This document shows positions 1 to 16,641 of a stretch of 47,795 nt of DNA, piece by piece. Within the stretch, counting starts at the first letter, position 1, and every line of letters starts with the position of its first letter. The stretch is from a virus, in the IMG/VR virus record IMGVR_UViG_3300037088_000099, positions 1 through 47,795 of that record; one strand, 5' to 3'. The notes below the pieces were generated by a model. That model searched no databases, was not told the DNA's origin, and saw only the letters and a program-made list of their open reading frames with translations. Position numbers and translations under genes: made by a program.

Positions 1-127
1 TATAATGAACCTAGCCCCAGTACGGATGAGGCGAGAAAGACTCCGATTGGAGTAGGATGTATACCATGCAGATTACAATTACACTCACGGATGCACAGGA
101 ATCCGCCCTGTTTATGATGGGGAAGGA
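1..127. repeat. terminal direct repeat, left copy
   Basis: Bases 1-127 are identical to 47669-47795; genome unit is 47668 bp. Confidence 0.9.
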
Positions 128-332
128 CGAGGACGTGCAGCAAGCAATCGCGCAGTCCACTTTCACGGCACGCATCAAAGGCGACTTCAAGCGGTATCGG
201 GAAGCAGAGAAGAAAGTCAATGCAGCCATTTACGACGACTCATCCAAGCGCGGCGCGAAGTGGCCAGAGTCCAAAGACGATTATCTCAAGCGCATGGCGC
301 AGGAATCGCTGGCTGTCATTGCAGAACTGTAA
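57..332 (+). CDS. small ribbon-helix-helix-like DNA-binding protein (putative early regulator)
   Basis: 91-aa ORF with GGAG 4 nt upstream of the ATG. N-terminus ITITLTDAQESALFMMGK fits a beta-strand then helix RHH pattern. First gene after the divergent control region. Confidence 0.55.
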   Translation: MYTMQITITLTDAQESALFMMGKDEDVQQAIAQSTFTARIKGDFKRYREAEKKVNAAIYDDSSKRGAKWPESKDDYLKRMAQESLAVIAEL

Positions 333-392
333 CCTGCTAGTGCGCATATCCCAAGCATAGGTCTTGGACGTGCGCACAATGGAGGTCACAAT

Positions 393-641
393 ATGCCCCT
401 GCAATATCCGTACAATCCAAACGCGATGTATATTCACATCGCGCAAACTGAGGCGACGCGAGAAGAGAATATGCGCCGTATGCGTTCCTGCGATGGACTC
501 GCGCAGCCACACTCCGTGCACTATCAGCCATCTCTGCGTCCCGATGTTCCCACACTCCACGATCTCGCACAAGGCACAAGCGTACACGCGCAGATGCTAG
601 CTCTATTGCTGGTACGCGCGCAGCGCGAAGGGAGGATGTAG
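393..641 (+). CDS. hypothetical protein
   Basis: 82-aa ORF with GGAGG 8 nt upstream of the ATG. Overlapped by alternative-frame ORFs, so coding status is uncertain. Confidence 0.4.
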   Translation: MPLQYPYNPNAMYIHIAQTEATREENMRRMRSCDGLAQPHSVHYQPSLRPDVPTLHDLAQGTSVHAQMLALLLVRAQREGRM

Positions 642-1202
642 CTATGACAATCCCATATCTATCCTATCGGCTATCAACATCAGCTGAATATCTCCATAAT
701 GAATCACGAGTTGCGCTCTATCTCCGTCCATCTGCATTCCCAGCTCTCGCAGTTCGCTGGTATCTCGCAGCACGTGCAGAACGCGAGCGTATGAAGAACG
801 TATAATTCGCAGTACAAAAGAGTGTAGGTGCTTTGGCTTACCCTCGCTCTCTATCACCTTTCATCTCTATCACATACGCCATACCCTCTCAAGGTGGCGA
901 GGGGGGGTATGGCACGCGTGTGCTTTGAATTTCTCTCTCTCTGCTTTTCTCTGATTCGTGTTGAATTTGAGATTCTATTACAGAGTGCTCTTGTATTATA
1001 AAAAAAAAATATTTTTATAATATATAAGAGAACAGAAACTATGAAAGAGAAATCAATAGAAATTGAGAATTAGCACGGAAGAGAAATCATCGCTGCAAGC
1101 GTACGCACACCCCGATGTCTACCTTGAGAGGGTATCGGGTATGTCGATGATATGATGAGGGTTAGGCCGAAGTCTATCCAAAACCGCCTACACACTTTTG
1201 TC

Positions 1203-1231
1203 TTGACACGATGGCTTCGCCGGTATATGAT
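1203..1231 (+). promoter_or_regulatory. sigma70-like promoter (TTGACA, 17-nt spacer, TATGAT)
   Basis: TTGACA at 1203-1208 and TATGAT at 1226-1231. The cTTGACAc core recurs at 4121 and 9423. The predicted transcript start falls at the ATG at 1238. Confidence 0.45.
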
Positions 1232-1987
1232 GTCTACATGGCCAATTCAGATAAAACACGGTTAGCAAAGATTGATGCGGAGATTATTGATGTGCAGTAT
1301 CTCTATCAGCGCGAATTAGATCGGGAGGGTGAGTTGTCCCCGGAACGTAGACATTTGCTTGCTAGTCGTGGGTTTAAATACCGACTGGATAATTTGTATG
1401 CGAAGCGCGCGTTGCTGCGTAAGTTTATACCAGCGGCGCCTACTAAGGCGATGAATTATGTTACTGAAATGTCGCGTAGGCGCACGGAATATGATAATGT
1501 TTGTGAGGAATACGAGCGCGCATTGAAAACATTTGCGAATAAGATCGCAAATGTAGCATTAGTTGGATTGAATCTAGACAATGAACTAGAACTAAAATGT
1601 ATGCGCCGAGAAATTGGTGCGTTGAAGAGTTTGGTTTCAAGTAAGAATCGTGCTGTGAATAATTGGCTCGCAAAAGGTACATCTACAGAGTATAGTAGTG
1701 TGCTGAAAACTCAGTATATGCCACATCGAGCGGAGCGAGCACAATTACCTGAGCAGGCTGCGCCTTTAGCTCTTGCGCCAGTGATGCGGATTGAGGATAT
1801 GAGCGGAGATATGCAAGAGATTGCGCGTGCCAGCGCAGCGTGTACGGCTGCGAATGTTACTGACGCTGCGCATTCTACTCCGCCGGATACATATAGCGCG
1901 AGTTTTGCAGCACTGAATGCGGAACCTGCGCGCGAGGATGTTAGTAGTGGTTTACGAATGGCAGTTGAAAGTGAGGATGTGAAATGA
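1211..1987 (+). CDS. hypothetical early protein
   Basis: 258-aa ORF. The ATG at 1211 lies inside the predicted promoter, so the in-frame ATG at 1238 is the more likely start, implying a leaderless mRNA. Confidence 0.7.
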   Translation: MASPVYDVYMANSDKTRLAKIDAEIIDVQYLYQRELDREGELSPERRHLLASRGFKYRLDNLYAKRALLRKFIPAAPTKAMNYVTEMSRRRTEYDNVCEEYERALKTFANKIANVALVGLNLDNELELKCMRREIGALKSLVSSKNRAVNNWLAKGTSTEYSSVLKTQYMPHRAERAQLPEQAAPLALAPVMRIEDMSGDMQEIARASAACTAANVTDAAHSTPPDTYSASFAALNAEPAREDVSSGLRMAVESEDVK

Positions 1988-2241
1988 TAACAGAAATATA
2001 TCCCAGTGGTACTGGGACGTTCACAGCACGGATAGCACATGGAAAGTCTAGTGCTATGCGAACTGGATTCCGCACACGCGAATCAGCACAGGCGTATCTT
2101 ACAGCGATGGAGCCAAAAATGGTATCCGTCACGGATATGCACGATCCTGATGCGTATAGATACGCGCATAACGCAACTCACCAGCTACAGTTTGGTGGCC
2201 GGCAGATGCCACATTATATCCTGCACTCCGAGAGGAATTGA
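1984..2241 (+). CDS. hypothetical protein
   Basis: 85-aa ORF whose ATG overlaps the upstream stop (ATGA), suggesting translational coupling. Confidence 0.6.
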   Translation: MITEIYPSGTGTFTARIAHGKSSAMRTGFRTRESAQAYLTAMEPKMVSVTDMHDPDAYRYAHNATHQLQFGGRQMPHYILHSERN

Positions 2242-2244
2242 GCC

Positions 2245-2469
2245 ATGCCACGAGCTATAACATACAACTGTGATATATGCGGCGCACAGCGCAAAGAGGC
2301 AAATCATTGGTTTGCTGCTATTATCACAGCAGTAGGCGTAAGTATCATTACTTGGGCAAGTGCTGCACGGGATGGAAAGCTCGACTACGACGTAAAATAT
2401 CTGTGCGGACAAGCATGTGCACATAAACAACTCGATCAATTCCTACAATCCACATCGGAGTCCGAATAA
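2245..2469 (+). CDS. hypothetical Cys-containing small protein
   Basis: 74-aa ORF in the same-strand array; contains CDIC and CGQAC motifs. Confidence 0.55.
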   Translation: MPRAITYNCDICGAQRKEANHWFAAIITAVGVSIITWASAARDGKLDYDVKYLCGQACAHKQLDQFLQSTSESE

Positions 2470-2471
2470 CC

Positions 2472-2735
2472 ATGCCACATATTCCTGAACCTCAGTATGA
2501 ATGCTTTACTTGCGAGCAATACTTTGCTCGCACATCTGCGCTCATGGACGGTGTTCCGGTTGAGTACGCGACGGAATACTGCACGCGAGCATGTCAGCAA
2601 CAGTTTACAGAGCAGCTTGAAGCCGGCGCAGCTATGTCAAAGGCTGAGGGATTGGATGCACTACAACGTCCTGCGACTAGCACTGCTACGCTCATTGGTA
2701 TTGCACAGAAGTATGGATTGAAGTTAGCTAAGTAA
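2472..2735 (+). CDS. hypothetical Cys-containing small protein
   Basis: 87-aa ORF starting 2 nt after the upstream stop; contains CFTC and CTRAC motifs. Confidence 0.55.
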   Translation: MPHIPEPQYECFTCEQYFARTSALMDGVPVEYATEYCTRACQQQFTEQLEAGAAMSKAEGLDALQRPATSTATLIGIAQKYGLKLAK

Positions 2736-2776
2736 TTTCACGCAACATAACTTACTTTGAAAAAAGGAGTAATACA

Positions 2777-2992
2777 ATGGCTACCACAACACTCGCACGC
2801 AGGATTCGTAGGATTGGTGTGCTTCCCGGAACTAAGGGCATGCAGTTTGATGAAGAGTTTTTGCGCGACAATCGTGAAGTAACTGTAGCAGCAATTCGCG
2901 CAATAATGTATGATCGGCGTAGCATAGCGCGTGCAAAGCAACAGACTCCAGTAAAGAAAAATCGTCGTAGCCGCGCACGTCGCACTGCGTAA
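2777..2992 (+). CDS. hypothetical basic small protein
   Basis: 71-aa ORF with AAAGGAG upstream; Arg/Lys-rich C-terminus. Confidence 0.55.
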   Translation: MATTTLARRIRRIGVLPGTKGMQFDEEFLRDNREVTVAAIRAIMYDRRSIARAKQQTPVKKNRRSRARRTA

Positions 2993-3120
2993 TCTGTATC
3001 AACGCAAGTATTTATATCTTGCGTGCTGTACTCTATGAGAGAACTAAGTTATGTAGATTGACCGGGACATTTTACATAACAAGAGCGTTGAAATAGAGCA
3101 CAGCACGGAGGGTATAAACT

Positions 3121-3312
3121 ATGAACAATTCAACGCATATATCAGAACCATTCGCACCACATACAAATGCACGTCATCCACGATTTACGCGTAAAGCACT
3201 TGGTATAACTGCACGGCAATTCAAGAAGCAAAGAATTGCGCGGCTAGTATCGCTCGCAGAACAAGGAAAGATTGGCTATAGAAATATCATAGCAACAAAG
3301 GAGCTAGAATAA
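3121..3312 (+). CDS. hypothetical small protein
   Basis: 63-aa ORF with GGAGGG upstream. Confidence 0.5.
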   Translation: MNNSTHISEPFAPHTNARHPRFTRKALGITARQFKKQRIARLVSLAEQGKIGYRNIIATKELE

Positions 3313-3398
3313 TGCAAATAGCTGCGATCTTCGCATTACTATTCACATTGCTTGTCTTCGTATTCTGTTCGTTCATAGTTCTGGATGCACAGAAGTAA
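3312..3398 (+). CDS. small hydrophobic peptide (28 aa, single predicted TM helix)
   Basis: Manual translation MQIAAIFALLFTLLVFVFCSFIVLDAQK. Its ATG overlaps the upstream TAA (TAATG). Below the length cutoff of the ORF track. Confidence 0.4.
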   Translation: MQIAAIFALLFTLLVFVFCSFIVLDAQK

Positions 3399-3431
3399 TA
3401 ACAGCCTAACGGAGTACCACAGAGAGGTATT

Positions 3432-3503
3432 ATGAACAGCACTGGTTGTGCAATCTTCGCTTGTCTGTTTATTACAGGAATTCTATTCCTATGCTTTTAC
3501 TAA
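3432..3503 (+). CDS. small hydrophobic peptide (23 aa), paralogue-like to the preceding one
   Basis: Manual translation MNSTGCAIFACLFITGILFLCFY, preceded by AGAGAGG. Shares an AIFA-LF core with the upstream peptide. Confidence 0.4.
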   Translation: MNSTGCAIFACLFITGILFLCFY

Positions 3504-3693
3504 TATCAACCAGCGATTATATCGCTGTGTACGGCTAGGCACTAAGCGGGGAATACTCGTGAATCCCTAACTGCGACTGCATATTATGCAACGTCCTGGT
3601 CGAGGTTGCGCGCAATATGTAAGGCAGGTATTAGCTGAATCAACAGCTATAGCCGTACACAGGAGTATAATACTGTATACAGGAGATGGGAAT

Positions 3694-4101
3694 ATGGAAG
3701 AGAATCAGGTAAAGAAACAAACGCCGCAGGAAAAAGTGGTTGAATATTATCTTGTGCTTGCAAAATACTACGCAGCGCATCCGAATGCGATGGTCGAATA
3801 TCTGCCAACGATTCAATATCTCTGGATCGACGGAAAACCGGAAGAGTACAAAGCTGCTGGCGCGGGAGATAAGGAGTTCACGAATGATTATGTGAACTAT
3901 AAGGTAGAGCTTATTCCCAATAAGCTTACATTGAATTTCTGCACTCCGCGTGGAAATGTATGCAAGAAACGTGTAGTAGGCACGAAAGAAGTTCCAGAGT
4001 TTTATATTGCTGGGACAGCCGGAAGAGTAATCCCCGCGCATACGGAAGAAGTAATCGAATGGGATTGCCCTGAGTCGCTTCTAAAGGCCAAAGAATCCTA
4101 G
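3694..4101 (+). CDS. hypothetical protein
   Basis: In-frame ATG at 3694 within ORF 3586-4101, preceded by AGGAGATGGG; gives 135 aa. Confidence 0.6.
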   Translation: MEENQVKKQTPQEKVVEYYLVLAKYYAAHPNAMVEYLPTIQYLWIDGKPEEYKAAGAGDKEFTNDYVNYKVELIPNKLTLNFCTPRGNVCKKRVVGTKEVPEFYIAGTAGRVIPAHTEEVIEWDCPESLLKAKES

Positions 4102-4120
4102 CCTTACCCGCACCTTTACC

Positions 4121-4149
4121 TTGACACCTTGCGCGCGATGTGCGACAAT
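4121..4149 (+). promoter_or_regulatory. candidate sigma70-like promoter (TTGACA with weak -10)
   Basis: cTTGACAc at 4120-4127 matches the core at 1203 and 9423. The -10 is weak (GACAAT), so confidence is low. Confidence 0.3.
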
Positions 4150-4253
4150 GTAACTAGATCGCATACGCGCGCAATCGTCAGTGTAAAGTAGCTACGCACT
4201 GAAAAAGCGCACTATAGTAATACGGGCAACCCCCGTAGGAGAGTAATAAATCT

Positions 4254-4787
4254 ATGTCAACCACCGCAGTTATCTCTGATCCTAACACAATCGCAACTCT
4301 TCCAATCAGCAGCGAAGTTCTGAACTACACCGCTATTGTCGAACTTGACGAGAAAGGTGTAATCCAGAAGAAGTCCCTCACTACCAGCTCCAAGCGTGTG
4401 GAAACGCTGGAAGCTGCTGATTACTCCGGCAAGGAAATCATCGCATTCAAGCAGACTGTTTCTCGCCCGGTTGTTGGTACGCTTGCGGGATTCACTGATC
4501 TGTTCCCGGATGCTGATGCGCAGCTTTTCATTATCAACCGCGGTTTGAGTGCGTTTGCTGATGCGAAGGTTCGTTCTGTATTCCTGGAAACTGATAAGGA
4601 CGACACCGCGCTTGTTTTCCAGTCCACCACCGGCACGTATGATCTTACCGCTGATGTGCAGGATACGCCAGCACGCAAGCTCACGAGCGAGGAAACTCTG
4701 GTCGCCAGCCTGCGCAAGATGGGAGTCAGTTCGGATATGATCTCGCAGGTGTTTGCGAGCTTGCAGGCGAACAAGGCTACTGTCTAA
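4254..4787 (+). CDS. hypothetical early protein, probably highly expressed
   Basis: 177-aa ORF with AGGAGAG upstream, lying between a candidate promoter and a strong intrinsic terminator. Confidence 0.8.
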   Translation: MSTTAVISDPNTIATLPISSEVLNYTAIVELDEKGVIQKKSLTTSSKRVETLEAADYSGKEIIAFKQTVSRPVVGTLAGFTDLFPDADAQLFIINRGLSAFADAKVRSVFLETDKDDTALVFQSTTGTYDLTADVQDTPARKLTSEETLVASLRKMGVSSDMISQVFASLQANKATV

Positions 4788-4821
4788 ACGATATACGCAA
4801 TAGATTGCAGCATTTGAAGAC

Positions 4822-4860
4822 TGGCGCACGTTCAGTAAAATGGGCGTGCGCCATTTTTAA
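4822..4860 (+). terminator. intrinsic terminator
   Basis: Stem TGGCGCACG (4822-4830) pairs with CGTGCGCCA (4845-4853), followed by a T5 run, about 35 nt after the stop at 4787. Confidence 0.55.
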
Positions 4861-4881
4861 TTGTAGGGTAGGAGCATAACT

Positions 4882-5226
4882 ATGATCGCATGTGATTTAA
4901 ATCACTATAATGATGCTATAATGTATCTAAAAGGTGCTAGACATGATTTATCTGTAGCAGCTGCAAAACTTCAAGCCATGGGCGAAGGAGATGGTTGGCC
5001 TGAGTGGTATAAAATGGCTGAAACTGAAACGATAAGAGAGTTATTCCGGAAAGAAAAATGGTATAGCCCTGAAATGGATAATATACCAGAATTCATCTTA
5101 TTTCGCGGATTGCTTAGTAATTGGACACCGCGCAAAGAACAAGAGAGTCAAATAAAAATTGCTGCCGAGCGCATAGCAATTTATCAATGGGTAGAAGGTG
5201 AGATTATAAAAACATGGCACTCTTGA
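4882..5226 (+). CDS. hypothetical protein (AT-rich gene)
   Basis: 114-aa ORF with AGGAG upstream. Visibly more AT-rich than neighbouring genes. Confidence 0.6.
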   Translation: MIACDLNHYNDAIMYLKGARHDLSVAAAKLQAMGEGDGWPEWYKMAETETIRELFRKEKWYSPEMDNIPEFILFRGLLSNWTPRKEQESQIKIAAERIAIYQWVEGEIIKTWHS

Positions 5227-6074
5227 GTAACGGTCAACTTGCGAAATGCCCGCGATGCGGGATGAATATAGCTGGTGTACGGCTAACCACGGGACAAATA
5301 GCATATCATTGTACTTGGACATTTTGCGAGGATAAGAATAAAACACTGTGGAATTCTGAGATTCTTGCGCGTCCTGTACTCACACAAGCGCAGAAAGATT
5401 CTTATCGCATATCCGCAATGCTAAAAGCAGGCCAGAGTAACGCGCAGATACCAGGATTTTTTGCACAAGCATACGCACAAGCACAAGCTCCAACTGGCTC
5501 GCATCCAAATAATACACAGCCGATATACCCGATATACTCAGCACAACCGAGGCGCACTTCCATGAAAGAAATCCGAATAACATATCTCTACAACAATACA
5601 ATCGTAGAACTATATTTCATAACCATGCCACGCAAAGGCTGGTTCAAAGACAACATCCAGCCAGTTATAGATGTTATGAAAAATATGATTCCCGCGAACG
5701 CGCGTGAATACGACCCCGCGACGTTCAAATGGCAGATTGCGATTGAGTATTGGCCCGCGTTGCGACAGATATTGACCTCCACACAATTCGCGGTAAAGGA
5801 AGTATCGCCCTCTACTTCGCACGCGAACGTACCCAAAGATTATGCAGAGAATTTCTATCACGCGCCAGTAAAACGCGAGGTTGAGACGAAGGAGTCTATA
5901 CTTGTGCTGCTTGCAAAGCTACTCGGAATCCATGAGGATATTGCGAGTATGGAGCTGGTCGCGCTGAAAAAGAAATATCGTGAGGCTGCACGCCGATACC
6001 ATCCTGACCTCGGTGGAGATGCTGCGAAGATGGCGGAGTTGAATCGAGTTTGGAGTATATACAATACTAATTAA
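5214..6074 (+). CDS. J-domain (DnaJ-like) protein with N-terminal CxxC motif
   Basis: C-terminus LVALKKKYREAARRYHPDLGGDAAKMAELNRVWSIY has the HPD tripeptide in a helix II/III J-domain context. N-terminus has CPRCG. Confidence 0.8.
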   Translation: MALLSNGQLAKCPRCGMNIAGVRLTTGQIAYHCTWTFCEDKNKTLWNSEILARPVLTQAQKDSYRISAMLKAGQSNAQIPGFFAQAYAQAQAPTGSHPNNTQPIYPIYSAQPRRTSMKEIRITYLYNNTIVELYFITMPRKGWFKDNIQPVIDVMKNMIPANAREYDPATFKWQIAIEYWPALRQILTSTQFAVKEVSPSTSHANVPKDYAENFYHAPVKREVETKESILVLLAKLLGIHEDIASMELVALKKKYREAARRYHPDLGGDAAKMAELNRVWSIYNTN

Positions 6075-6083
6075 GGAGAAATT

Positions 6084-6341
6084 ATGCATACCGGAGCAGT
6101 CAGAGAGCTAGTAGCAGCAGCGGAAGAGGCGGCGGAATGGATACACGAGAGAACCACCCACAGCAAGATTGAGTACCTTCTCCGCGCATCGGTGGAAGCG
6201 GTCAAGGCGGAGGAGAAGCCGCAGACGCATGAGTTCTTCTCAGGCTCAAGCAATGGATTTCGAGTGTTCTGCCAACACGAAGAGACGACACGCTGTGGCC
6301 TACCCCACGACGCACCGAGCCACCAGACAGGAGGCAAATAA
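6084..6341 (+). CDS. hypothetical protein
   Basis: 85-aa ORF with AAGGAGA upstream. Confidence 0.5.
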   Translation: MHTGAVRELVAAAEEAAEWIHERTTHSKIEYLLRASVEAVKAEEKPQTHEFFSGSSNGFRVFCQHEETTRCGLPHDAPSHQTGGK

Positions 6342-6529
6342 TGCGAATCAAGCGTAATACTGCGGGCGGACTAACTATAATAGTAGGCCGTCTATCAATA
6401 TGGACTGACCCATGTGATAAATTCTGGAATTTTGTATATGGCAACAACAGATTTAATGTGAATTTATATTTAGGTTGGCTGAATTTCAGTTTTGTGAAGA
6501 AAGGAGCATATGAAACTCATAATTCGTAA
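6341..6529 (+). CDS. hypothetical small protein
   Basis: 62-aa ORF whose ATG overlaps the upstream stop (TAATG); overlaps the next gene by 20 nt. Confidence 0.35.
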   Translation: MRIKRNTAGGLTIIVGRLSIWTDPCDKFWNFVYGNNRFNVNLYLGWLNFSFVKKGAYETHNS

Positions 6530-6800
6530 ACAGGGCGCATATTGGAATGTCGATTTCAATGGCGCACATCGCTTTTATCCTGACTATCTCGGCGCAGTTA
6601 CATACGCTGATAAAACATGGCGGAGGTATTATAAAGAGCAAGCAGCGCACTCGATGATACTTGCGCTTGCTGCGAATCTCTTGGAAGCTGATGAACTTGC
6701 GCTATATACCAAACTCCGCAAGAACAAATGTGCTGGAATCACCGTCAAACAATACGGTTACGTCAAAGGAATCTACGAACGACAAAAGAGAGCGTGGTAA
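6510..6800 (+). CDS. hypothetical protein
   Basis: 96-aa ORF with GAAAGGAG upstream. Confidence 0.6.
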   Translation: MKLIIRKQGAYWNVDFNGAHRFYPDYLGAVTYADKTWRRYYKEQAAHSMILALAANLLEADELALYTKLRKNKCAGITVKQYGYVKGIYERQKRAW

Positions 6801-6801
6801 T

Positions 6802-6984
6802 ATGCAGATAATCGAGTGTCCGATATGTGGCACACCATGTGGTAAACGCTATCCTAGTACAGAAACTGATCCCGCATTCTGTGAGGGGATTGGTGAGAAT
6901 TTCTCAAGTAGTGAAGCAGGATTCGGAGTTTGGTGTTGTAGTCAAGATTGTTTAGATGAATACAACGAAGGCGCGATGCAGTAA
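6802..6984 (+). CDS. small zinc-ribbon protein
   Basis: In-frame ATG 1 nt after the upstream stop; 60 aa with CPICG and CCSQDC motifs. Confidence 0.5.
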   Translation: MQIIECPICGTPCGKRYPSTETDPAFCEGIGENFSSSEAGFGVWCCSQDCLDEYNEGAMQ

Positions 6985-6993
6985 GCGCAGCTC

Positions 6994-7025
6994 AAAGCAG
7001 CTACTTGCTAATTAGTAGCTGCTTT
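6994..7025 (+). terminator. perfect 12-bp hairpin, terminator-like
   Basis: AAAGCAGCTACT pairs with AGTAGCTGCTTT around an 8-nt loop, just after the stop at 6984. No long U-tract, so it may be an attenuator or processing site. Confidence 0.35.
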
Positions 7026-7058
7026 ATGGTGTACTTATACATCGAATAAGGAGAATAC

Positions 7059-7256
7059 ATGAAACATATTATTGTTGTAGCAACACCCGATGATGCTGTT
7101 ATAGATGGAGTAGATGAGCAAACATTACAGGATACTGTAATTACTGTGATTGAAGCTCTTTTTGAGCAGCATTATTCAGCAGTTTATACACAATCAACCT
7201 TCAATGCAAAATCAGCAGTCGTCGCAGTCAAAAAGATGTACAACGTGGAGGAATAA
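7059..7256 (+). CDS. hypothetical acidic small protein
   Basis: 65-aa ORF with AAGGAGA upstream. Confidence 0.6.
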   Translation: MKHIIVVATPDDAVIDGVDEQTLQDTVITVIEALFEQHYSAVYTQSTFNAKSAVVAVKKMYNVEE

Positions 7257-7553
7257 ATGAAACTCGAAGATATAACCGCGGAGCAATTTGATGCTTGGAT
7301 AGAGAAAACAACCAGTCCGGCTGAAAAACCAGACGATAACTGGCTCGCAGAAACCGCTATGGCAATGGAAACAATGAAATCAATGCCGGCATTGCGCGAA
7401 TATCTCACGCTAGTCGCGCTTGTTTCCAAGCTATCAGGCAAATCCAGTGCAAATGCAATTTTCACAATCGGTATTTGTCTCGGAATAGAATTCGCCGTTG
7501 ATCGCGCGGAGAGCGAGAAATTGGAGGCACTTGTATGCCCAGTCTCACAGTAA
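7257..7553 (+). CDS. hypothetical protein
   Basis: 98-aa ORF starting directly after the upstream stop. Confidence 0.55.
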   Translation: MKLEDITAEQFDAWIEKTTSPAEKPDDNWLAETAMAMETMKSMPALREYLTLVALVSKLSGKSSANAIFTIGICLGIEFAVDRAESEKLEALVCPVSQ

Positions 7554-8203
7554 TACAGAAACCAATCGTCTCTAGCAACGGGCGAATTCTTACCGGATTG
7601 GCTGCGCGGAAAGCACAGCTCGCGTCTGAGCTTGGGTTGCCGCAGGAGCTAAAACCGGGGCAGATGGAGCATAGGATTGGAATAGTATTTGATGATTCTG
7701 GTTCTATGCGAACGGATATGATCGAAGACGCGCATGTAGGATGCGAGGAATTCTTACGCTACTGCGAACCGAATAAAACCGCGGTATGTGTATATCCTAT
7801 GAACGCGGATGAGCTGTCGCTTAGTACGAATCTTCCTGCGCTCGCTATGCTTATCAATGGTATCCACGCAACAGGTGGGACTCCGTTGATTCAAAAGCTC
7901 AGTAAGATGCTGCGCGCGAATAAGCTCACACGCGCGATCGTATTTAGTGACGGGTGCCCGCAGTCGTATTCAGACGTAGACTATAATTTCTGTGTGGAAT
8001 CTAAGATTCCGGTAGACACAGTATTCATTGGTTCTGGCTATGGTAGCGAGTTCATGCAAAAGCTCGCCTCTGATTGCAACGGCATATTCCTGCAATTCGA
8101 GCGCGGAAAGTCTAATTTTCGTACTGCATTCAAATATCTGAGTCCCGGACTTCGGTATATGCTTGCGGACTCTTCATTCAGGGAAAAAATACAAGGGAGA
8201 TAG
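7535..8203 (+). CDS. von Willebrand factor type A (vWA) domain protein
   Basis: MIDAS-type DxSxS motif in IGIVFDDSGSM, then ATGGT and IVFSDG motifs in vWA order. No signal peptide. Confidence 0.75.
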   Translation: MPSLTVIQKPIVSSNGRILTGLAARKAQLASELGLPQELKPGQMEHRIGIVFDDSGSMRTDMIEDAHVGCEEFLRYCEPNKTAVCVYPMNADELSLSTNLPALAMLINGIHATGGTPLIQKLSKMLRANKLTRAIVFSDGCPQSYSDVDYNFCVESKIPVDTVFIGSGYGSEFMQKLASDCNGIFLQFERGKSNFRTAFKYLSPGLRYMLADSSFREKIQGR

Positions 8204-8204
8204 C

Positions 8205-9323
8205 GTGCCACTCACCCAAGAACAAGCACTTATCACCGCGCTCCTATCTCAAAAGCTTTCTGCGCTACGTATTCGCGCGAGCTTCGAGAGTGTCGAGCCG
8301 GGGCCAATAGTCACAACCTATTACATGCATCTCGGTGCTGATATTCCTATCTCCAAAATAATGCGAGCGGAGGAAGACCTTGCGCTGGCAGTTGGAGCAC
8401 CGAGCGTACTTATAACACGAAAGGGGGCTTCAATTGCGATTGCGATTCCGAATAAGGAAAGAACTGTCGTATCTTACGATTCTTGTTTGCACTCACTTAT
8501 GCAGGATGCTAATTGTCAGTTGCCAATTATGCTTGGAGTTGACACGAAAGGTAATGAGAAACATATTGATCTTATCGAATCACCGCACATTCTCATTGCA
8601 GGTAGTACAGGTGCAGGCAAGTCAGTATTACTTGCAGCAATCATTAGTGGGCTTGCTACAGCCAAGAGTAAGCATGAACTCAAAATGATGCTTGTAGACA
8701 CCAAGCAGCTTGATCTAACTCTATTTGCAGACCTCCCGCATGTAGTGGAGGTCGCAGATGATTTAGAGAAAGTGCATTTGCTACTTGATCGCTTACACAT
8801 CATAGTCCGCCAGCGTACAGCGAAGATGAAGGGTATAGCACGGAATCTTTCTGAGTACAACGCGCTGGGCGATCATCAACTTCCGTATTATGTAGTTGTT
8901 ATAGATGAGCTTGCAGATGTGCTAATGCAGGATCGAAGTGCCGGGAAAGGAATACGAGGATATGAAAAAGCTGAAACAAAGCTACAGGGTTTATTGCAGA
9001 TATGCCGCGCAGCGGGAATTCACATCATTTGTGCTACACAACGCCCCTCGGTGGAAATTATTACTGGTGATATTAAAGCTAATATACTTACGCGAATTGC
9101 ACTTAGGCTACCTAGTGGGGCTGACAGTAGAACTGTATTAAATGAATACGGAGCCGAAAAACTCCTCGGACGTGGAGACATGCTTATCGAATCCCCCTGC
9201 TTCGACCAAATAACCAGATTCCACGGGCCGTTTGTGAGCATGGCTCATATAGCAAGCGTGTTGGATAACTGTGATGGTATTAGGAATAGTTATAAAATGC
9301 TGGAATCGAGTATCGGGTTGTAG
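8205..9323 (+). CDS. FtsK/SpoIIIE-family DNA translocase ATPase (motor domain only)
   Basis: Walker A IAGSTGAGKSVLL, Walker B YYVVVIDELADVL, and a C-terminal block ICATQRPSVEIITGDIKANILTRIAL that closely matches the FtsK motor. GTG at 8205 with AGGGAG upstream sits 1 nt after the vWA stop; the ORF track's longer TTG start is at 8163. Confidence 0.8.
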   Translation: MPLTQEQALITALLSQKLSALRIRASFESVEPGPIVTTYYMHLGADIPISKIMRAEEDLALAVGAPSVLITRKGASIAIAIPNKERTVVSYDSCLHSLMQDANCQLPIMLGVDTKGNEKHIDLIESPHILIAGSTGAGKSVLLAAIISGLATAKSKHELKMMLVDTKQLDLTLFADLPHVVEVADDLEKVHLLLDRLHIIVRQRTAKMKGIARNLSEYNALGDHQLPYYVVVIDELADVLMQDRSAGKGIRGYEKAETKLQGLLQICRAAGIHIICATQRPSVEIITGDIKANILTRIALRLPSGADSRTVLNEYGAEKLLGRGDMLIESPCFDQITRFHGPFVSMAHIASVLDNCDGIRNSYKMLESSIGL

Positions 9324-9396
9324 GCGAGGTCGGGTCGCGCCTGATGGGTCGATGGGTCGAATCGGGCTAAGTCGTCTGTATAGAGCCATTTAGATA

Positions 9397-9479
9397 GGGT
9401 ATATCACCTATCAAAAGACCCCTTGACACGCCTACCCGCCGGATGATAGACTGTAATACAGGGTGAGCTTTACCCTATC
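9397..9479 (+). promoter_or_regulatory. promoter (TTGACA at 9423-9428) bracketed by a 9-bp inverted repeat
   Basis: GATAGGGTA at about 9397 and its reverse complement TACCCTATC at about 9471 flank cTTGACAc, with a TAGACT-like -10 about 18 nt downstream. Confidence 0.4.
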
Positions 9480-9509
9480 ATGCTTTAGCACCACAAAGGA
9501 CACAGCACA

Positions 9510-9734
9510 ATGACCGCTCCAACTACCACACCCCGCGCATACGATGGCTACCATCGCAACACCGGGCGCAAAACCGAGATGGCAGCATTTCGGATATTCA
9601 CAGACCAGAACGCTGCGCTCAGTGCGAAGTATTCTGGCAACAGATCGGCACTTGTACGGATTCTATTGGAGCGGTTTTTAAGCGGTACTATGCCGAGTGT
9701 TGAAGCGGAATTTAAACAACTAACCGAACGATAA
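9510..9734 (+). CDS. ribbon-helix-helix-like small regulator
   Basis: 74-aa ORF; AAFRIFTDQNAALSAKYSGNRSALVRILLERFL fits a beta-strand plus two-helix RHH pattern. Sits directly downstream of the inverted-repeat promoter. Confidence 0.55.
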   Translation: MTAPTTTPRAYDGYHRNTGRKTEMAAFRIFTDQNAALSAKYSGNRSALVRILLERFLSGTMPSVEAEFKQLTER

Positions 9735-9745
9735 TAGGAGTAGGT

Positions 9746-10351
9746 ATGCCAACGCAAGATGGCGAAACCATCCCAGTCTGTCCCGCGTGTGACGCGAAGG
9801 ATGAGACGAAGATATGTTTGAAGTGCCACATTGTATACTGTGCGCATTTCGCATCCGTAACGGATAATAGATTCTGCGAGAATTGTATATCTGATTTTTC
9901 TCTGAAAGAAACAATAGTAGAGAAATTAGTAGAGCATATTCGACCTGATGGCACTGTAACATTTTCAAGAAAGTATCAAGCTAGGTGTATTCACATGCAA
10001 GGAAATGATTGGTTGTTTGCAGCGACGCTGATTCCTGAAATGTCGGATGCGGAGATTGACGCGACGATTGAGTATCATAGGAATAATGTGTCACTGATGC
10101 TTATGGAGCGCGAATCGCGGAAGCTCGAACGGTACCATAAACTCGCGGGCGTAAAAATCACCAATACCAAGCATGAATCGCAGGAAGCGCGGGAGAAGCG
10201 AGAAGAAAAAGAAGCGAATAAGAAAACTCGCACAAGTACGAAGGAAAAAGCTCCGACTGTGGATGATATGGTTGCGATGATTACGAAGTTGGCGAAGGCT
10301 GGATTGACGCAAGAGCAGATTACAGCGATGTTTGCGAAGGGGAAGAAATGA
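9746..10351 (+). CDS. zinc-finger protein, hypothetical
   Basis: 201-aa ORF with N-terminal CPAC...CLKCH...YC cluster and a Lys/Glu-rich central region. Confidence 0.6.
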   Translation: MPTQDGETIPVCPACDAKDETKICLKCHIVYCAHFASVTDNRFCENCISDFSLKETIVEKLVEHIRPDGTVTFSRKYQARCIHMQGNDWLFAATLIPEMSDAEIDATIEYHRNNVSLMLMERESRKLERYHKLAGVKITNTKHESQEAREKREEKEANKKTRTSTKEKAPTVDDMVAMITKLAKAGLTQEQITAMFAKGKK

Positions 10352-10653
10352 GCGAGAAATTAGAAGGTATCTGTGGAGTTTGTGGCAGATCACGCATTGA
10401 ATGCCGCAAAAATATCTTAGGTTTAGCTACAAATGCACCGGAAGCTGATCTCATAAATCACCCTTCTCACTACACCGACGGCGGAATTGAAACAATCGAC
10501 TTTATTGAAGCGAAGAAATTGAATTATAATTGTGGGAACGCAACTAAGTATATCAGTCGTGCTGGAAAGAAAGACAAAGCGGAGCGCGCAGTTGATATTG
10601 CGAAGGCGATTTGGTACTTGCAGCGGGAGCTTGATACTCTGAAAGGAAAGTAA
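10348..10653 (+). CDS. small phage protein with HPSHY/GGIETIDFI motif (DUF3310-like)
   Basis: 101-aa ORF; NHPSHYTDGGIETIDFIEAK resembles a conserved small phage family recalled from memory, not searched. Confidence 0.5.
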   Translation: MSEKLEGICGVCGRSRIECRKNILGLATNAPEADLINHPSHYTDGGIETIDFIEAKKLNYNCGNATKYISRAGKKDKAERAVDIAKAIWYLQRELDTLKGK

Positions 10654-10654
10654 T

Positions 10655-11710
10655 ATGCAAATCGAAGAAGCAATCTCTCGCTACCACTGGTTCCAGCGTG
10701 GGGAAGATGGCGTAATCGAGCTATTCCTCGATCACCACGCGCTCGCAACTTTTCGCTCTTGCGAAGCGTCGTTTGAGCTATCAATGATGGCGAATATCCG
10801 GCCAGTACATAAAAGCTGGAATCTTGAATTTGGTATTATCTTTCACAAGATGATTGAAGAGTTTTATATTGCAAAGCGGGATGAGAAGTTTGAGCTTGTA
10901 CCCTGGCTGCAATTAGCAATCGGACTGTGGGACAAGTATCAGATGGAGGCGCAGTTTGGCGAGCATAAGATGTATAAGATGCTCGGCGGAGTATATGGAT
11001 TTATAGATATGCTCGCGCAGTATGCGGATCATTTTGCAGCAGAGGTTGATAGGCTACGGGTTATTGGGATTGAGATTACATTTGGAAAGAAGCGGGAAGT
11101 GCTGCTTGGCACATTTACAGCATATCAGCTTGATCCTACTCTGCAACCCCATTTTAAAATTGAGTTTGATGCGCAGGTTGAGCAAGTACGCTGCTACCTC
11201 ACAGGCCGTATCGACTTTCTAATGGACTCCGGTAACGCAATAGGCCCGCTAGATCACAAAACCACCGCATTCTTCCGTGGAAATCCTGCAAATACCTACG
11301 ATCCGCAAGAAGGAATGACAGGCTACATCTTCGCGGTGCAGCAAATTATGAAAACCAGTTTCCCTGAACTCCTGGGTCAGCGCAAAGTAGATCGCATTTG
11401 GATGAACTTCGCACAAGTAAGTCCAGTAAAAGATCCGATGGAGCGTTTCAAGCGTGTCCCGATATTCAAAACAGATTGGCAGCTTGAGCAATATCGGCTG
11501 CGACAACTACGGACATTTCATAAGATTTATGACATGATCGTACTTGGAGAGCGTGCGGATTGGAATACTTCTGTTTGTAATAATATGTTCCATAACGAAT
11601 GCCAGTATCGAAATTTGCATCGGCAGAATACAAATGATGCTATGATACAGGTGCTCAAAACTGATTTCAAGGTGGCAGCACCGTGGAATCCTGAGCAAAT
11701 AGAGGATTAG
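10655..11710 (+). CDS. PD-(D/E)XK nuclease, Cas4/RecB-like
   Basis: TGRIDFLMD followed by PLDHKTT matches the D ... (D/E)xK nuclease core; C-terminal cysteines (CNNMFHNEC) resemble a Cas4-like metal cluster. Confidence 0.6.
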   Translation: MQIEEAISRYHWFQRGEDGVIELFLDHHALATFRSCEASFELSMMANIRPVHKSWNLEFGIIFHKMIEEFYIAKRDEKFELVPWLQLAIGLWDKYQMEAQFGEHKMYKMLGGVYGFIDMLAQYADHFAAEVDRLRVIGIEITFGKKREVLLGTFTAYQLDPTLQPHFKIEFDAQVEQVRCYLTGRIDFLMDSGNAIGPLDHKTTAFFRGNPANTYDPQEGMTGYIFAVQQIMKTSFPELLGQRKVDRIWMNFAQVSPVKDPMERFKRVPIFKTDWQLEQYRLRQLRTFHKIYDMIVLGERADWNTSVCNNMFHNECQYRNLHRQNTNDAMIQVLKTDFKVAAPWNPEQIED

Positions 11711-11770
11711 AAACCTGCTGCTCACGTTCTGTGGGCAGTAAAGCGAACTTGCGGAAAAGGCAGGCGTACA

Positions 11771-12043
11771 ATGATTCCGTCACAACCCGCAAGCAACTCC
11801 GCAACGCAAACCCCTTCCCCCACGGCGGCTACTTCGGTAGCCGTCCCGCCTATGAGATTAGACGTGTCCGAGTCCGTGTGGCCGACTAGCACGATCCTGC
11901 ATGAAATCGAATGGTGCGCAAATCGTATCGCTACGCTTGAACCAATGTTATCCCGCAAGCCTTCAAAGAAGTGGGAAATAGCAGACCTGCGAAGGCAGAT
12001 AAAAGACAAGCGTGCAGTGATTGATTACAGGAGAACTCGGTGA
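11771..12043 (+). CDS. hypothetical protein
   Basis: 90-aa ORF in the same-strand array; an antisense ORF overlaps it, so confidence is modest. Confidence 0.4.
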   Translation: MIPSQPASNSATQTPSPTAATSVAVPPMRLDVSESVWPTSTILHEIEWCANRIATLEPMLSRKPSKKWEIADLRRQIKDKRAVIDYRRTR

Positions 12044-12354
12044 CCGCTGATCCCCAACCCACGCCAAAGGCTCCCGCCCGAACATGGCAGGAACAGGTTG
12101 CCAACATTCAGCGCAATTTGGCCGCAAAGACTATGAGTTGCGACCGTGACACTCACCGAAACGATAACCCGCAATGGATTGAAGAGGAGAAACAAATGAA
12201 TCTTGGCCCTCGTTGTAATTTTATGCTCCCGAATCATTGTCAGTGTCCGAATACTGCATTAGCGGATTCGGATATGTGCGAATTACATAAGGAATTTCAA
12301 ACAGAACAAGCCGTTGCGGTAGAACAAGCGAAAATTGAAAAACTGGAGAAGTAA
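12040..12354 (+). CDS. hypothetical Cys-containing protein
   Basis: 104-aa ORF overlapping the upstream gene by 4 nt. Confidence 0.5.
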   Translation: MTADPQPTPKAPARTWQEQVANIQRNLAAKTMSCDRDTHRNDNPQWIEEEKQMNLGPRCNFMLPNHCQCPNTALADSDMCELHKEFQTEQAVAVEQAKIEKLEK

Positions 12355-13143
12355 ATGCCATACGAGAATATCAACGGGCTTGTGGATTTGGAGTCCGAGC
12401 CACGATTTAAAATCGCAGTAGTTGGTGAGCCAAAAGCAGGTAAAAGCTGGTTCGCTATGACTGCGCCGGGAACTATCTTCGAGGCCGATTTCGATGATCG
12501 TTCGGAGAGTATACGAGCGTTTGTGAATAAAACAAAGCGCACAGATATCACAGCGAAGACATACAAGGAACTAAATCCCGCACAACCACACGCGATTGCG
12601 GATTTTGAAACCGATTTGAGTATGTTTGAATATCTCAAGCAAAAGGGTGAGAAAACACCCGATTGGTATATTCTTGATTCTATGACATATTTGCGTACCG
12701 CGTGCGAGCATGAGCTTATCAAACAGCACCCAAGCATGAGCCGCGTTGTAAAGATGGGAAATACTACAGTACGGATTCCATCGCACTATGATATTATTAA
12801 CGGCAATCGTGCGTATATGGAATACTTGCTTGGGCGATTATCCGAGCTTGGAAATGTAATCGCAATTTTTCATGAAATGGATGAAAAAGATGCTCAATCT
12901 TCGACAAAAGAGCAAAAGGCTTACACTGGGCGAAAAACTGTTCAGCCTCAGTATCTTAGTAGCTTACTTTCTCTTTTCAACGACGTGTTTCGTATCACTA
13001 TTGATTATAGCGGTAATAGGATTGTTGCTGTTCAGCCATCTTCTGATTTCATGGCTTCAACTTCAATGAGATTAGATGCCACGGAGTCTGCGAATCTTGC
13101 AGATATGATTGCGAAGCACAAAAAAGCACTCGCACAAGTTTAG
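12355..13143 (+). CDS. RecA-like P-loop ATPase (Sak4/AAA_24-like)
   Basis: N-terminal Walker A VVGEPKAGKS and Walker B-like WYILDS in a protein of about 260 aa, as in phage Sak4-type recombination ATPases. Confidence 0.65.
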   Translation: MPYENINGLVDLESEPRFKIAVVGEPKAGKSWFAMTAPGTIFEADFDDRSESIRAFVNKTKRTDITAKTYKELNPAQPHAIADFETDLSMFEYLKQKGEKTPDWYILDSMTYLRTACEHELIKQHPSMSRVVKMGNTTVRIPSHYDIINGNRAYMEYLLGRLSELGNVIAIFHEMDEKDAQSSTKEQKAYTGRKTVQPQYLSSLLSLFNDVFRITIDYSGNRIVAVQPSSDFMASTSMRLDATESANLADMIAKHKKALAQV

Positions 13144-13207
13144 CACATCTCACCGTGCTAGTTAGCAAAAAACAAACATACCAAAATAAAAAAACGAGGA
13201 TACAAAT

Positions 13208-13690
13208 ATGTTTAACATGAAAGTAGACAACGCAACCATCGAAGGTCTTGACGTAATCCCTCCGGGGCCGTATGAGATCAAGTTGGTTAGTTTTGCACCA
13301 AAGCTGTCGAAAAAGGGAGATACTGTAAACTTCAATCCCTGCATGATTGTCGTAGGGCATCCTGAGTTTGCGGGACGTAAGATTTTCGATACGCTGAATA
13401 GCAACGGGTATCAGTTCGCTGATTTCTCGCACTGCTTTGGACTACCGCTGGATACGGATGGGAAAGATAGTTGGCTACCGGGATCGTTTGACGGTGAGCC
13501 TTCTGCTGATCCTAAGACACTTCCGTATAAAGGCCCGCTTGTTGGGCGCACGGGTAAGATCATTGTCGCTGTGGATAATTACAACGGCAGGGATAGTAAC
13601 AAGGTCGAGCGGTATATTTGTGCGGTTGCGGATTGTGCAAGTAAGTTCCCAAAAATTCGTCATAGCGTTGATTTGCTGAAGAGGAAGTAA
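13208..13690 (+). CDS. hypothetical protein, positional partner of the Sak4-like ATPase
   Basis: 160-aa ORF with ACGAGGA upstream. Function inferred from position only. Confidence 0.5.
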   Translation: MFNMKVDNATIEGLDVIPPGPYEIKLVSFAPKLSKKGDTVNFNPCMIVVGHPEFAGRKIFDTLNSNGYQFADFSHCFGLPLDTDGKDSWLPGSFDGEPSADPKTLPYKGPLVGRTGKIIVAVDNYNGRDSNKVERYICAVADCASKFPKIRHSVDLLKRK

Positions 13691-13808
13691 TAAAATACTG
13701 GCCGGTGGCGAAAGCGTGGGTAATACCACAAAAAATGGCAAACGCTGTAGTTTATTGTGCAGGTTCAAGTCCTGTCCGGTCAGATTTTTTATATCAAAAG
13801 GAGAGTAT

Positions 13809-13946
13809 ATGATTAAAGAGTGTGAAATGTGTGGCGAAGAGTTTGAAGCGGAAGATGATACACAAGATATGTGTAATGATTGTAGTATGGCGGAGTACGA
13901 AGAAGCAGATGGCGAATATGAAGATCCTAGCAACTACGGAGCATAA
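13809..13946 (+). CDS. small acidic zinc-ribbon protein
   Basis: In-frame ATG with AAAGGAGAG upstream; 45 aa with CEMCG and CNDC motifs and an acidic tail. Confidence 0.5.
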   Translation: MIKECEMCGEEFEAEDDTQDMCNDCSMAEYEEADGEYEDPSNYGA

Positions 13947-13948
13947 TC

Positions 13949-15079: not shown

Positions 15080-15252
15080 AATATCTGAGATATATACCGC
15101 ATCCACATTGGCGCCGGTTAAATTTTCTCTGGGTAAATAGCAGAGGCGGGGCAACAAAAAGAAAAGATGCTGCACATAGTAGAGTTTACTATATTCGTAC
15201 TTGTAAGTTATGTGGGAAGAAAATAGATAATGGCTCCAGAAGAGGATATTAG
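15076..15252 (+). CDS. small basic protein with C-terminal CxxC
   Basis: In-frame ATG overlapping the exonuclease stop (ATGA); 58 aa. Confidence 0.4.
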   Translation: MKYLRYIPHPHWRRLNFLWVNSRGGATKRKDAAHSRVYYIRTCKLCGKKIDNGSRRGY

Positions 15253-15254
15253 TA

Positions 15255-15458
15255 ATGGCTGAAATCAACGCATCTACCCAAGAGCAACTCGCAGAGCAAA
15301 TAAATGCTCAGTTCAGAACGCTCTCTGAAATTCTCCAAGAGCAACACGAAGCATACAAGCTCTTATACGACATTAATGGCAAGTTCATAGAATACTGTGA
15401 ACACGCCAGAATACTAGCCCAATCAGCACAACCGAATGTATCCTTAGGAGGATATTAA
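15255..15458 (+). CDS. hypothetical small protein
   Basis: 67-aa ORF starting 3 nt after the previous stop. Confidence 0.5.
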   Translation: MAEINASTQEQLAEQINAQFRTLSEILQEQHEAYKLLYDINGKFIEYCEHARILAQSAQPNVSLGGY

Positions 15459-15823
15459 TGGCAGCTCAGGCATTTAATCTTACTTTCAACTGCACGCCCG
15501 CACAATTCGCTGTAGCAATGGCTACAACACTTCCAACAGAAGGATATACTGTTATTCAAGCACCTAATAAATTTGCCGGTATTATTACCGGAACATCAAG
15601 TGCTGCGGCAGGACTTGGGCAACTAGATTTCTTCTACGATGGCGCGTATTATCTCAAATTCTTCGGTGCGAATCCTGCTCCGGTCGCACAGCAAGCACAG
15701 ACCGGAATCCCTGCTACACAGTTAACAAGTAATATCGTGAGTAATCTTACTACAACCCTCGCTGCAACCCTCGGCGCACCAGTACCCTCGAACACAGCTA
15801 ACGTAGCTGGCCCTGCTGCTTAA
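15458..15823 (+). CDS. hypothetical Ala/Thr-rich protein
   Basis: 121-aa ORF whose ATG overlaps the upstream stop. Confidence 0.5.
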   Translation: MAAQAFNLTFNCTPAQFAVAMATTLPTEGYTVIQAPNKFAGIITGTSSAAAGLGQLDFFYDGAYYLKFFGANPAPVAQQAQTGIPATQLTSNIVSNLTTTLAATLGAPVPSNTANVAGPAA

Positions 15824-15895
15824 TTGCTCTCACAACTAGAGGGGCAGAAATGTCCCTCTACTTAAACGCAAAATTTAATACCCGGAGAGTAAAAA

Positions 15896-16627: not shown

Positions 16628-16641
16628 GTGACTGGTATACT

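Follow-up and report, generated by a model that had tools for sequence, protein, structure and literature searches.

The locus examined here raises the question of whether two very short hydrophobic open reading frames (ORFs) of a phage are genes at all and, if so, what their products might do in the infected cell. The ORFs, m1 and m2, lie in IMG/VR virus record IMGVR_UViG_3300037088_000099, whose 47,795 nucleotides (nt) form the window, that is, the whole stretch of DNA analyzed. They sit one behind the other, directly downstream of a gene of 63 amino acids (aa), U63, about 3.3 kb into the early, rightward-transcribed arm of the genome and among small orphan genes. On balance, the sequence evidence makes it probable that m1 and m2 are real accessory early genes whose products would be separately translated, single-pass membrane peptides. 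Judged one at a time, m1 is very likely to be a translated gene, and m2 is likely to be one as well. The strongest argument comes from the way in which the two ORFs are shuffled as cassettes among related phages. Coordinates of all features are collected in Table 1.

Table 1. Features of the m1-m2 locus, arrangements found in related contigs, and other features of the genome (window positions unless a contig is named).
Feature	Position or contigs	Strand	Remarks
Whole window	1..47,795		complete tailed-phage genome; terminal repeat and end-joining contig
Left border element of U63-m1-m2 module	2993-3120	+	same design as right element
Upstream gene U63, 63 aa	3121..3312	+	no known family
m1 Shine-Dalgarno AAGGAG	3298-3303	+	8 nt before ATG
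Micro-ORF m1, 28 aa, MQIAAIFALLFTLLVFVFCSFIVLDAQK	3312..3398	+	ATG start
m1-m2 spacer, 33 nt	3399..3431	+	holds m2 Shine-Dalgarno
m2 Shine-Dalgarno GAGAGG	3422-3427	+	4-nt spacer to ATG
Micro-ORF m2, 23 aa, MNSTGCAIFACLFITGILFLCFY	3432..3503	+	ATG start
Right border element of U63-m1-m2 module	3504-3693	+	directly after m2
Haplotype A	window, L086, L102		U63 or U67 - m1 - m2 - element - 135-aa gene (60-aa gene in L002)
Haplotype B	L016; L022 (ends inside inserted gene)		U63 - m1 - 203/223-aa gene - m2 - element
Haplotype C	L004, L088, L094, others		U69 or U67 - m1 - 103-aa gene - element
Haplotype D	L106		U67 - m1 - element - 61-aa gene
Inserted 203/223-aa gene	L016 3325-3936, L022 3206-3499		between m1 and m2
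103-aa alternative cassette	L004 5345-5656		replaces m2
60/61-aa alternative cassette	L002 5570-5752		replaces 135-aa gene
168-aa alternative cassette	L094 2923-3429		replaces 135-aa gene
Large imperfect inverted repeat	861-906 / 1110-1155		46-nt arms, 74% complementary, 203 nt apart
Candidate lysis protein, 66 aa	43205-43405	-	two hydrophobic helices
131-aa ORF	43423-43818	-	no family match; between the two candidate lysis proteins
Candidate lysis protein, 88 aa	43820-44086	-	N-terminal helix and charged tail

Anatomy of m1 and m2

A sequence-only reading of the window had called two ORFs of 28 and 23 aa, each encoding a single hydrophobic helix, the first stop-start coupled to the upstream gene and the second equipped with its own ribosome-binding site, and these points were borne out. 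The U63 stop codon (TAA, 3310-3312) overlaps the m1 start (3312-3314) by 1 base in the arrangement TAATG, and the last six U63 codons (encoding ATKELE) together with that stop hold the ribosome-binding site of m1. This Shine-Dalgarno (SD) sequence is of the strong type shared with neighboring genes; it reads AAGGAG across the haplotypes and AAGGAA in two contigs only. The m1 peptide consists of one hydrophobic helix (~I3-L24) followed by a C-terminal DAQK, and the stop codon (TAA, 3396-3398) is followed directly by a second in-frame TAA (3399-3401). The m2 peptide, which is preceded by its own GAGAGG, begins with a polar MNSTG head that leads into an 18-residue hydrophobic helix, with zero charged residues and three invariant cysteines. 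Each unit thus runs from an SD through an ATG and a single, uniformly hydrophobic helix to a TAA with TA directly behind it. The U63 protein upstream matches no PHROG or Pfam family and falls into just two clusters among 5.8 billion protein sequences.

Other ways of reading this DNA were tried and rejected. A pseudogene remnant, like a read-through or fusion of m1 and m2 (which share a frame and lie 120 nt apart), was ruled out because no longer homolog was found, m1 ends in a double stop and the two ORFs occur apart from one another. A -1 frameshift from U63 into m1 would lack a slippery heptamer, and m1 is also found behind an unrelated gene. An antisense ORF of 51 aa, 3287..3442(-), lacks an SD, starts and ends at different places between haplotypes and contains a stop in L102. 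On inspection, m2 has no signal-peptide helix ahead of Cys6, so it was not taken for a lipoprotein.

ORFs of this kind are rare in the genome. In a scan of both strands, an ORF qualified if it encoded 18-60 aa, began 4-10 nt behind an SD-like motif and reached a Kyte-Doolittle value of at least 2.3 over 17 residues. Three ORFs pass in the 47.8-kb window, namely m1 (best window 3.0), m2 (2.7) and an unrelated GTG ORF at 32670..32771(-), against a mean of 0.32 and a maximum of 2 in 60 first-order Markov simulations of the window. The same scan across ~38 kb of related loci returned m1 and m2 alone. The GTG ORF (33 aa, AGGAG at 9 nt) sits where two large structural genes meet and is probably there by chance.

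The AIFA-LF core that had been noted in both peptides is readily seen when they are aligned without gaps (A5-I-F-A-L-L-F11 in m1, A7-I-F-A-C-L-F13 in m2). Of the 17 aligned residues 7 are identical, among them AIFA, L, F and a cysteine (C19/C21), and the BLOSUM62 score is 33 compared to 19.4 +/- 3.9 in composition-preserving shuffles (P = 0.008). Both units end in TAATA. The further claim that m1 and m2 are paralogous stands only in part. The alignment and the common ending are suggestive of a shared origin, and they fall short of proof because the sequences are short and compositionally biased.

Cassette behavior and sequence variation

Relatives of the locus were gathered from the contigs of the two U63 clusters, from a metagenome scan with the 135-aa protein encoded downstream (which found 6 loci only) and from contigs with a third kind of upstream gene, giving ~35 distinct contigs from many independent metagenomes. 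Alleles were taken mainly from the protein-encoding contigs and amount to 39 locus records for m1 and 16 for m2. The contigs fall into four arrangements, haplotypes A to D (Table 1).

Together with its SD, m1 is found behind two unrelated upstream genes, either a member of the U63/U69 family or a 67-aa gene (U67). U63 and U67 are unrelated save for the terminal six residues, ATKELE, and as the shared ATKELE DNA carries the m1 SD, m1 appears to travel with its ribosome-binding site. The spacer between m1 and m2 is a site of insertion and substitution, occupied by an Imm5-like gene in haplotype B and by a 103-aa gene in haplotype C. In L016, the sole contig to reach the far side of the Imm5-like insert, m2 resumes at ATT/ATG behind a different SD, AAAGGAAACG. 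In L004-type contigs the 103-aa gene stands in place of m2. L106 is without m2; here the junction lies inside the TAATA that trails each micro-ORF stop, and the removal runs from stop to stop. Between the window and L002, the U63-m1-m2 module shows 100% identity in spite of divergence on either side. In related phages, m1 and m2 are therefore independent cassettes that are kept, lost or separated by recombination at their borders. Within the clade m1 appears to be fixed and m2 dispensable.

The gene inserted in haplotype B encodes an Imm5-like immunity protein (33 bits to PF21805, cut-off 25; 25 bits to PF14423), which also carries a long run of AARDAAW-type repeats. Because such a gene has entered the slot between m1 and m2, the slot can be read as an exchange place for accessory genes of host interaction, and the presence of an Imm5-like gene in a phage early region hints at a counter-defense or anti-toxin use. 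The 103-aa and 60-aa cassette proteins have no family match. More distant relatives have a mini-protein of 42-43 aa at the position of m1 (L092 294-422; L093 3251-3382), with two CxxC..G pairs and a weak match to DnaJ_CXXCXGXG.

Conservation in related phages, which the sequence-only reading had named as a check, was found. Start, frame and stop are intact in every contig that carries m1 or m2, with zero indels, internal stops or lost starts, and both ORFs retain a ribosome-binding site even where the sequence upstream has been exchanged. For m1 there are 4 DNA alleles and 3 protein alleles, with 5 variable sites in 87 nt; four of the five are at third codon positions (3 synonymous, one giving I3M), and the fifth gives V17I. 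The 4 alleles of m2 differ at 11 of 72 nt (15%), which amounts to 3 silently changed codons and six replacements (T4I, A7V, L12I, F13L, I14T and T15A), all to hydrophobic or small residues. A simple mutation model puts the disruptive share of random changes at 18-24%, and none was found among the 16 variable sites (P = 0.018). Frame conservation lends moderate support to m1 and m2 being coding, the support being limited because the sample of alleles is narrow. Their behavior as cassettes is a stronger argument for genes than are the substitution statistics.

Several points weigh against this interpretation. The value of P = 0.018 treats the variable sites as independent, and the substitution statistics are weak: m1 taken alone has 3 of 5 synonymous changes (P = 0.12), and in m2 replacements outnumber silent changes. 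All alleles come from one narrow and highly mosaic clade, and the flanking non-coding elements are conserved as well as m1 and m2 or better, so much of the nucleotide identity could be owed to recent common descent or to hitch-hiking instead of selection on the peptides. Both ORFs are missing from two more distantly related phages that have a U67-like gene, and homologs elsewhere were found in none of Pfam, NCBIfam, PADLOC, IMG/VR and the GTDB genomes.

An alternative hypothesis built on such points is that m1 and m2 are not functional genes but chance-open ORFs in conserved, recently shared leader or intergenic DNA, carried along with the RNA elements on either side. In favor of this, the flanking elements are ~100% conserved where neighboring proteins are ~60% identical, m1 varies at just 5 of 87 sites over all its alleles, and the more distant relatives do without both ORFs. 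The conservative nature of the replacements is also less telling than it seems, as U-rich second codon positions favor hydrophobic swaps and 50-56% of random changes would count as 'conservative'. We nevertheless consider this hypothesis unlikely. It has to accommodate two adjacent SD-preceded ORFs where 0.32 are expected per genome, and an m2 that has neither indel nor stop despite 15% variable sites. Recombination junctions match the borders of the ORFs, with a new SD at the m2 ATG in L016 and the stop-to-stop removal in L106, and two upstream genes that are unrelated to each other both keep the m1 SD within them. The antisense and other frames, in contrast, are inconsistently delimited.

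Candidate roles of the peptides

Mean Eisenberg hydrophobicity is 0.84-0.94 for m1 and m2 and their hydrophobic moment is 0.04-0.16, with a net charge of 0 and 0-2 charged residues. This profile resembles that of membrane anchors, not that of amphipathic toxins. Set against hand-entered reference sequences, the profiles of KdpF and IbsC are similar to those of m1 and m2, and those of TisB, ShoB and PSM-alpha3 are dissimilar (the hydrophobic moment of PSM-alpha3 is 0.53).

Database searches returned no family to which the peptides could be assigned. Against Pfam nothing was significant (best E-values of 0.78 and 0.16, to unrelated models), and NCBIfam and PADLOC gave no match. Small photosystem or cytochrome subunits, a candidate prompted by the cyanophage-like terminase of the genome, gave no Pfam signal. 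The exact m1 and m2 sequences are missing from a collection of 15 billion proteins because they fall below the length limits of gene callers (ORFs <90 nt), in keeping with the earlier expectation that length thresholds would miss them. A scan of IMG/VR with a degenerate back-translation of the m1 core gave 62 matches and recovered m1 in two known contigs only; in one genome per GTDB species it gave 43 matches, none of them m1. The GTDB matches are helices in large proteins (cytochrome-b-like proteins, transporters) or are out of frame. As the matches sit in large membrane proteins or out of frame, AIFALLFTLL is best regarded as a generic membrane-helix string and not as a family signature.

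If m1 and m2 are genes, a plausible course of events can be outlined. m1 would be translated within the U63 operon through its own SD and coupling to the upstream stop, and m2 from its own SD. Both peptides would come to lie as single-pass helices in the cytoplasmic membrane of the host, with the DAQK tail of m1 probably remaining cytoplasmic. We speculate that they act there as small subunits or modulators, by helix-to-helix binding to another membrane protein, and that they do not form pores. Candidate outcomes are that entry of a superinfecting genome is blocked, that a host transporter is altered or that a membrane-bound defense effector is altered. The sequence context favors an accessory host-interaction role in what looks to be a hypervariable host-interaction region. 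Granted that the genes are real, a role as modulators or in exclusion is tentatively favored and a membrane-perturbing toxin is rather unlikely. A modulator or exclusion factor is preferred over a pore former because the peptides are non-amphipathic, their translation signals are strong and constitutive-looking, and their context is that of accessory host-interaction genes. The lack of amphipathicity and charge speaks against pore-forming toxins such as TisB or the PSMs.

Membrane-bound modulators of this size have precedents among bacterial proteins. Small single-pass regulators or subunits include KdpF (29 aa), MgtR (30 aa), MgtS (31 aa), AcrZ (49 aa) and CydX (37 aa), and proteins of the KdpF, MgtR and AcrZ type act by binding a larger membrane protein. 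m1 and m2 resemble these in length, in having one uniform hydrophobic helix with few or no charges, and in their low hydrophobic moment (KdpF being the one compared), a likeness of functional class between non-homologous proteins. They differ in having no sequence relationship to them, in having no membrane-complex gene nearby and in being phage-encoded in an early accessory region. Among phage proteins, T4 Imm, P22 SieA and HK97 gp15 are likewise early or moron-type accessory products of the inner membrane, dispensable and variable between relatives; unlike m1 and m2, they are three to ten times longer, have several helices or soluble domains, and show no homology to the peptides. Paralogous ORFs of 20-45 codons in a row, each leaderless and with its own ribosome-binding site, are also known from the psm-alpha operon, aureocin A70 and enterocin L50A/B. 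Those products are amphipathic, cationic and exported, whereas m1 and m2 are neutral and uniformly hydrophobic with no exporter gene nearby.

A second alternative is that m1 and m2 are membrane-perturbing toxins, Ibs-like or otherwise similar to type I toxins, which would collapse the host membrane early and shut down the host, or serve as an addiction or abortive module. Type I toxin loci include Ibs/Sib, Ldr/Rdl, ShoB/OhsC and TisB/IstR, as well as the prophage-borne BsrG and TxpA. Hok and Fst belong to the same class, and m1 and m2 keep within its size limit of ~60 aa for a hydrophobic peptide. Toxins of the tandem loci are 18-35 aa long, very hydrophobic, often encoded as tandem paralogs and sometimes on prophages, and the size, extreme hydrophobicity and tandem paralogous layout of m1 and m2 do recall the ibs, ldr and psm-alpha loci. 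The hydrophobicity profile is near that of IbsC (a hand-entered reference), and a sigma-70-like match (10 of 12 positions) runs antisense to the 3' end of m2 (3509->3480). Antisense promoter matches at the locus are, however, no more frequent than in shuffles (3 compared to 3.5), no minus-strand terminator lies downstream, and Rfam gave no match; the host may use a promoter type other than sigma-70. Type I toxins are translated under tight repression, quite unlike m1, with its AAGGAG at the optimal 8-nt spacing and its coupling inside an operon, and m2, with GAGAGG or AAGGA ahead of it. A credible antisense RNA gene was not seen, and neither was similarity to toxin families in Pfam, NCBIfam or PADLOC. 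The peptides are without amphipathicity or cationic residues, whereas TisB and ShoB are amphipathic. On translation control and family match m1 and m2 do not pass for type I toxins, an antitoxin RNA seems doubtful, and we consider a toxin unlikely.

A more elaborate version of the modulator reading, which is quite unlikely, would make m1 and m2 'micro-morons' (an SD, ~25 codons and TAATA) that are recombined at a few shared bases inside a module bracketed by structured elements. Their peptides would act as counter-defense or exclusion factors through helix-helix binding, disabling a membrane-embedded effector of the host, and would constitute a new class of phage factor. In this version m1 and m2 might form a hetero-oligomer through their shared AIFAxLF face.

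As a class, small hydrophobic ORFs of phages are already known, and m1 and m2 are a new, clade-restricted family. Fremin et al. 2022 (Cell Rep 39:110984) reportedly predicted small transmembrane gene families of phages. That study is in the reference list of PMC11364881, and hydrophobic intergenic micro-proteins of bacteria are the subject of PMC11188072. Members of both groups are shorter than 50 codons, are missed by annotation pipelines, have mostly a single hydrophobic helix and no Pfam domain, and are recognized through conservation and ribosome-binding sites, all of which holds for m1 and m2. The two peptides differ from the phage families in lying below the 30-codon range of most catalogs, with no searchable cataloged family matched, and in that their status rests on the shuffling of cassettes in one clade, not on broad conservation.

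Border elements and genome setting

The U63-m1-m2 module is bracketed by two structured intergenic elements of the same design. The right element comprises, in order, ATCAAC, a hairpin (CAGCGAT-TAT-ATCGCTG, 3511-3527), a closing stem of 22 nt (3516-3537/3650-3671), a TATAAT-like box into which the 3' arm of that stem runs, and the SD of the 135-aa gene. Its predicted RNA fold has a z of -3.95, and it has no Rfam match. The outer parts are ~100% conserved where the 135-aa protein is just ~60% identical, and the interior (50-110 nt) is replaced in relatives by at least 6 unrelated sequences, with the closing stem folding in every variant. The left element has ATCAAC at 2998, a hairpin (ACGCAAG-TATTTATAT-CTTGCGT) and a closing stem, GCTGTACTC...GAGCACAGC, that encloses a variable interior and is followed by the U63 SD. 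One pair of this stem is A:T in L004, G:C in L086 and L102, and A.C in the window, changes that read as a compensatory pattern. Possible identities of the right element are a regulatory cassette, a linker used in recombination and a processing site of the RNase III type. A promoter-like motif, AGTATAATACTGTATACAGGAG, was rejected as a repeated phage promoter, being single-copy in the window.

Mobile regulatory cassettes of T4-type phages, the 'promoter-early stem-loop' (PeSL) elements, were reportedly described by Arbiol et al. 2010. As in that system, conserved stem-loop and promoter-like elements here lie on either side of shuffled small early genes. The two systems are unrelated in sequence, and the elements described here differ in having a conserved closing stem around a replaceable interior, with promoter activity that is putative. 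The border elements may be the more unusual feature of the locus.

Proximity to the right element suggests a third alternative, in which m1 and m2 are regulatory leader ORFs whose translation matters and whose peptides do not, with ribosomes at 3503 tuning expression of the 135-aa gene. The m2 stop does lie 8 nt before the conserved hairpin at 3511-3527 and the well-folding stem. In other haplotypes, however, the same element is found behind the 103-aa gene or directly behind m1, so the element is independent of m2. The hydrophobicity of m2 and its three cysteines also survive six replacements, which an ORF serving purely as a spacer would not need. A leader role is therefore very improbable.

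Least credible of all is a role in lysis, as holin, antiholin or single-gene lysis peptide. Small single-helix peptides can lyse cells, as is known for phiX174 E (its N-terminal helix) and for ssRNA phages, but m1 and m2 are placed among the orphan genes of the early arm with no adjoining endolysin, and they fall well below the usual holin size of 60-150 aa. The charged C-terminal domain typical of holins is missing from both, m1 having just DAQK at its end and m2 being uncharged. In addition, m2 is dispensable, and better holin or spanin candidates are the two minus-strand ORFs that flank the 131-aa ORF (Table 1). Those three ORFs lie between the portal and terminase genes and are probably the lysis cluster.

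The window ends in an exact direct repeat of 127 bp (1-127 = 47669-47795), which marks it as a complete genome with either circular assembly or terminal redundancy; one IMG/VR contig bridges both ends. As far as ~20.6 kb, small orphan genes and then replication genes lie on the plus strand; the latter encode an FtsK-like ATPase, an exonuclease, a Sak4-like annealing protein, a two-piece DNA polymerase, a thymidylate synthase and a primase/helicase. The minus strand encodes terminase, portal, major head protein and tail spike. The phage is tailed and lytic-looking. Searches of positions 2700-4200 against 50,697 phage records by megablast and blastn gave 0 matches, and the terminase is just 21-32% identical to cyanophage terminases. 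No cultured phage is thus close, and an annotated relative for comparison is lacking.

Over its first 7 kb, the early arm is a mosaic of exchangeable small genes. Ahead of a gene at 1211..1987, a large imperfect inverted repeat (Table 1) occupies a gene-poor region of ~570 nt and is adjoined by an A/T-rich palindrome (997-1024); this region is a candidate for an origin or for early control. The DNA polymerase appears to be split between two plus-strand ORFs, 13949-15079 and 16642-18171, which match consecutive parts of one PHROG profile (positions 587-830 and 901-1247) and are separated by small ORFs and the thymidylate synthase gene (15896-16627). An ORF of 198 aa (19323-19919) has a weak DnaJ CXXC match and a Cpn10/GroES-like match.

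Genes shorter than 30 codons are systematically missing from phage annotation, and m1 and m2, from an uncultured phage lineage present in many independent metagenomes, are an example. Natural shuffling of cassettes among metagenomic relatives can validate such micro-genes without expression data, and the border elements may explain how early-gene cassettes move between phages. If m1 and m2 are indeed membrane-embedded modulators, they would be very small and easily synthesized probes of an entry route, a transporter or a defense effector.

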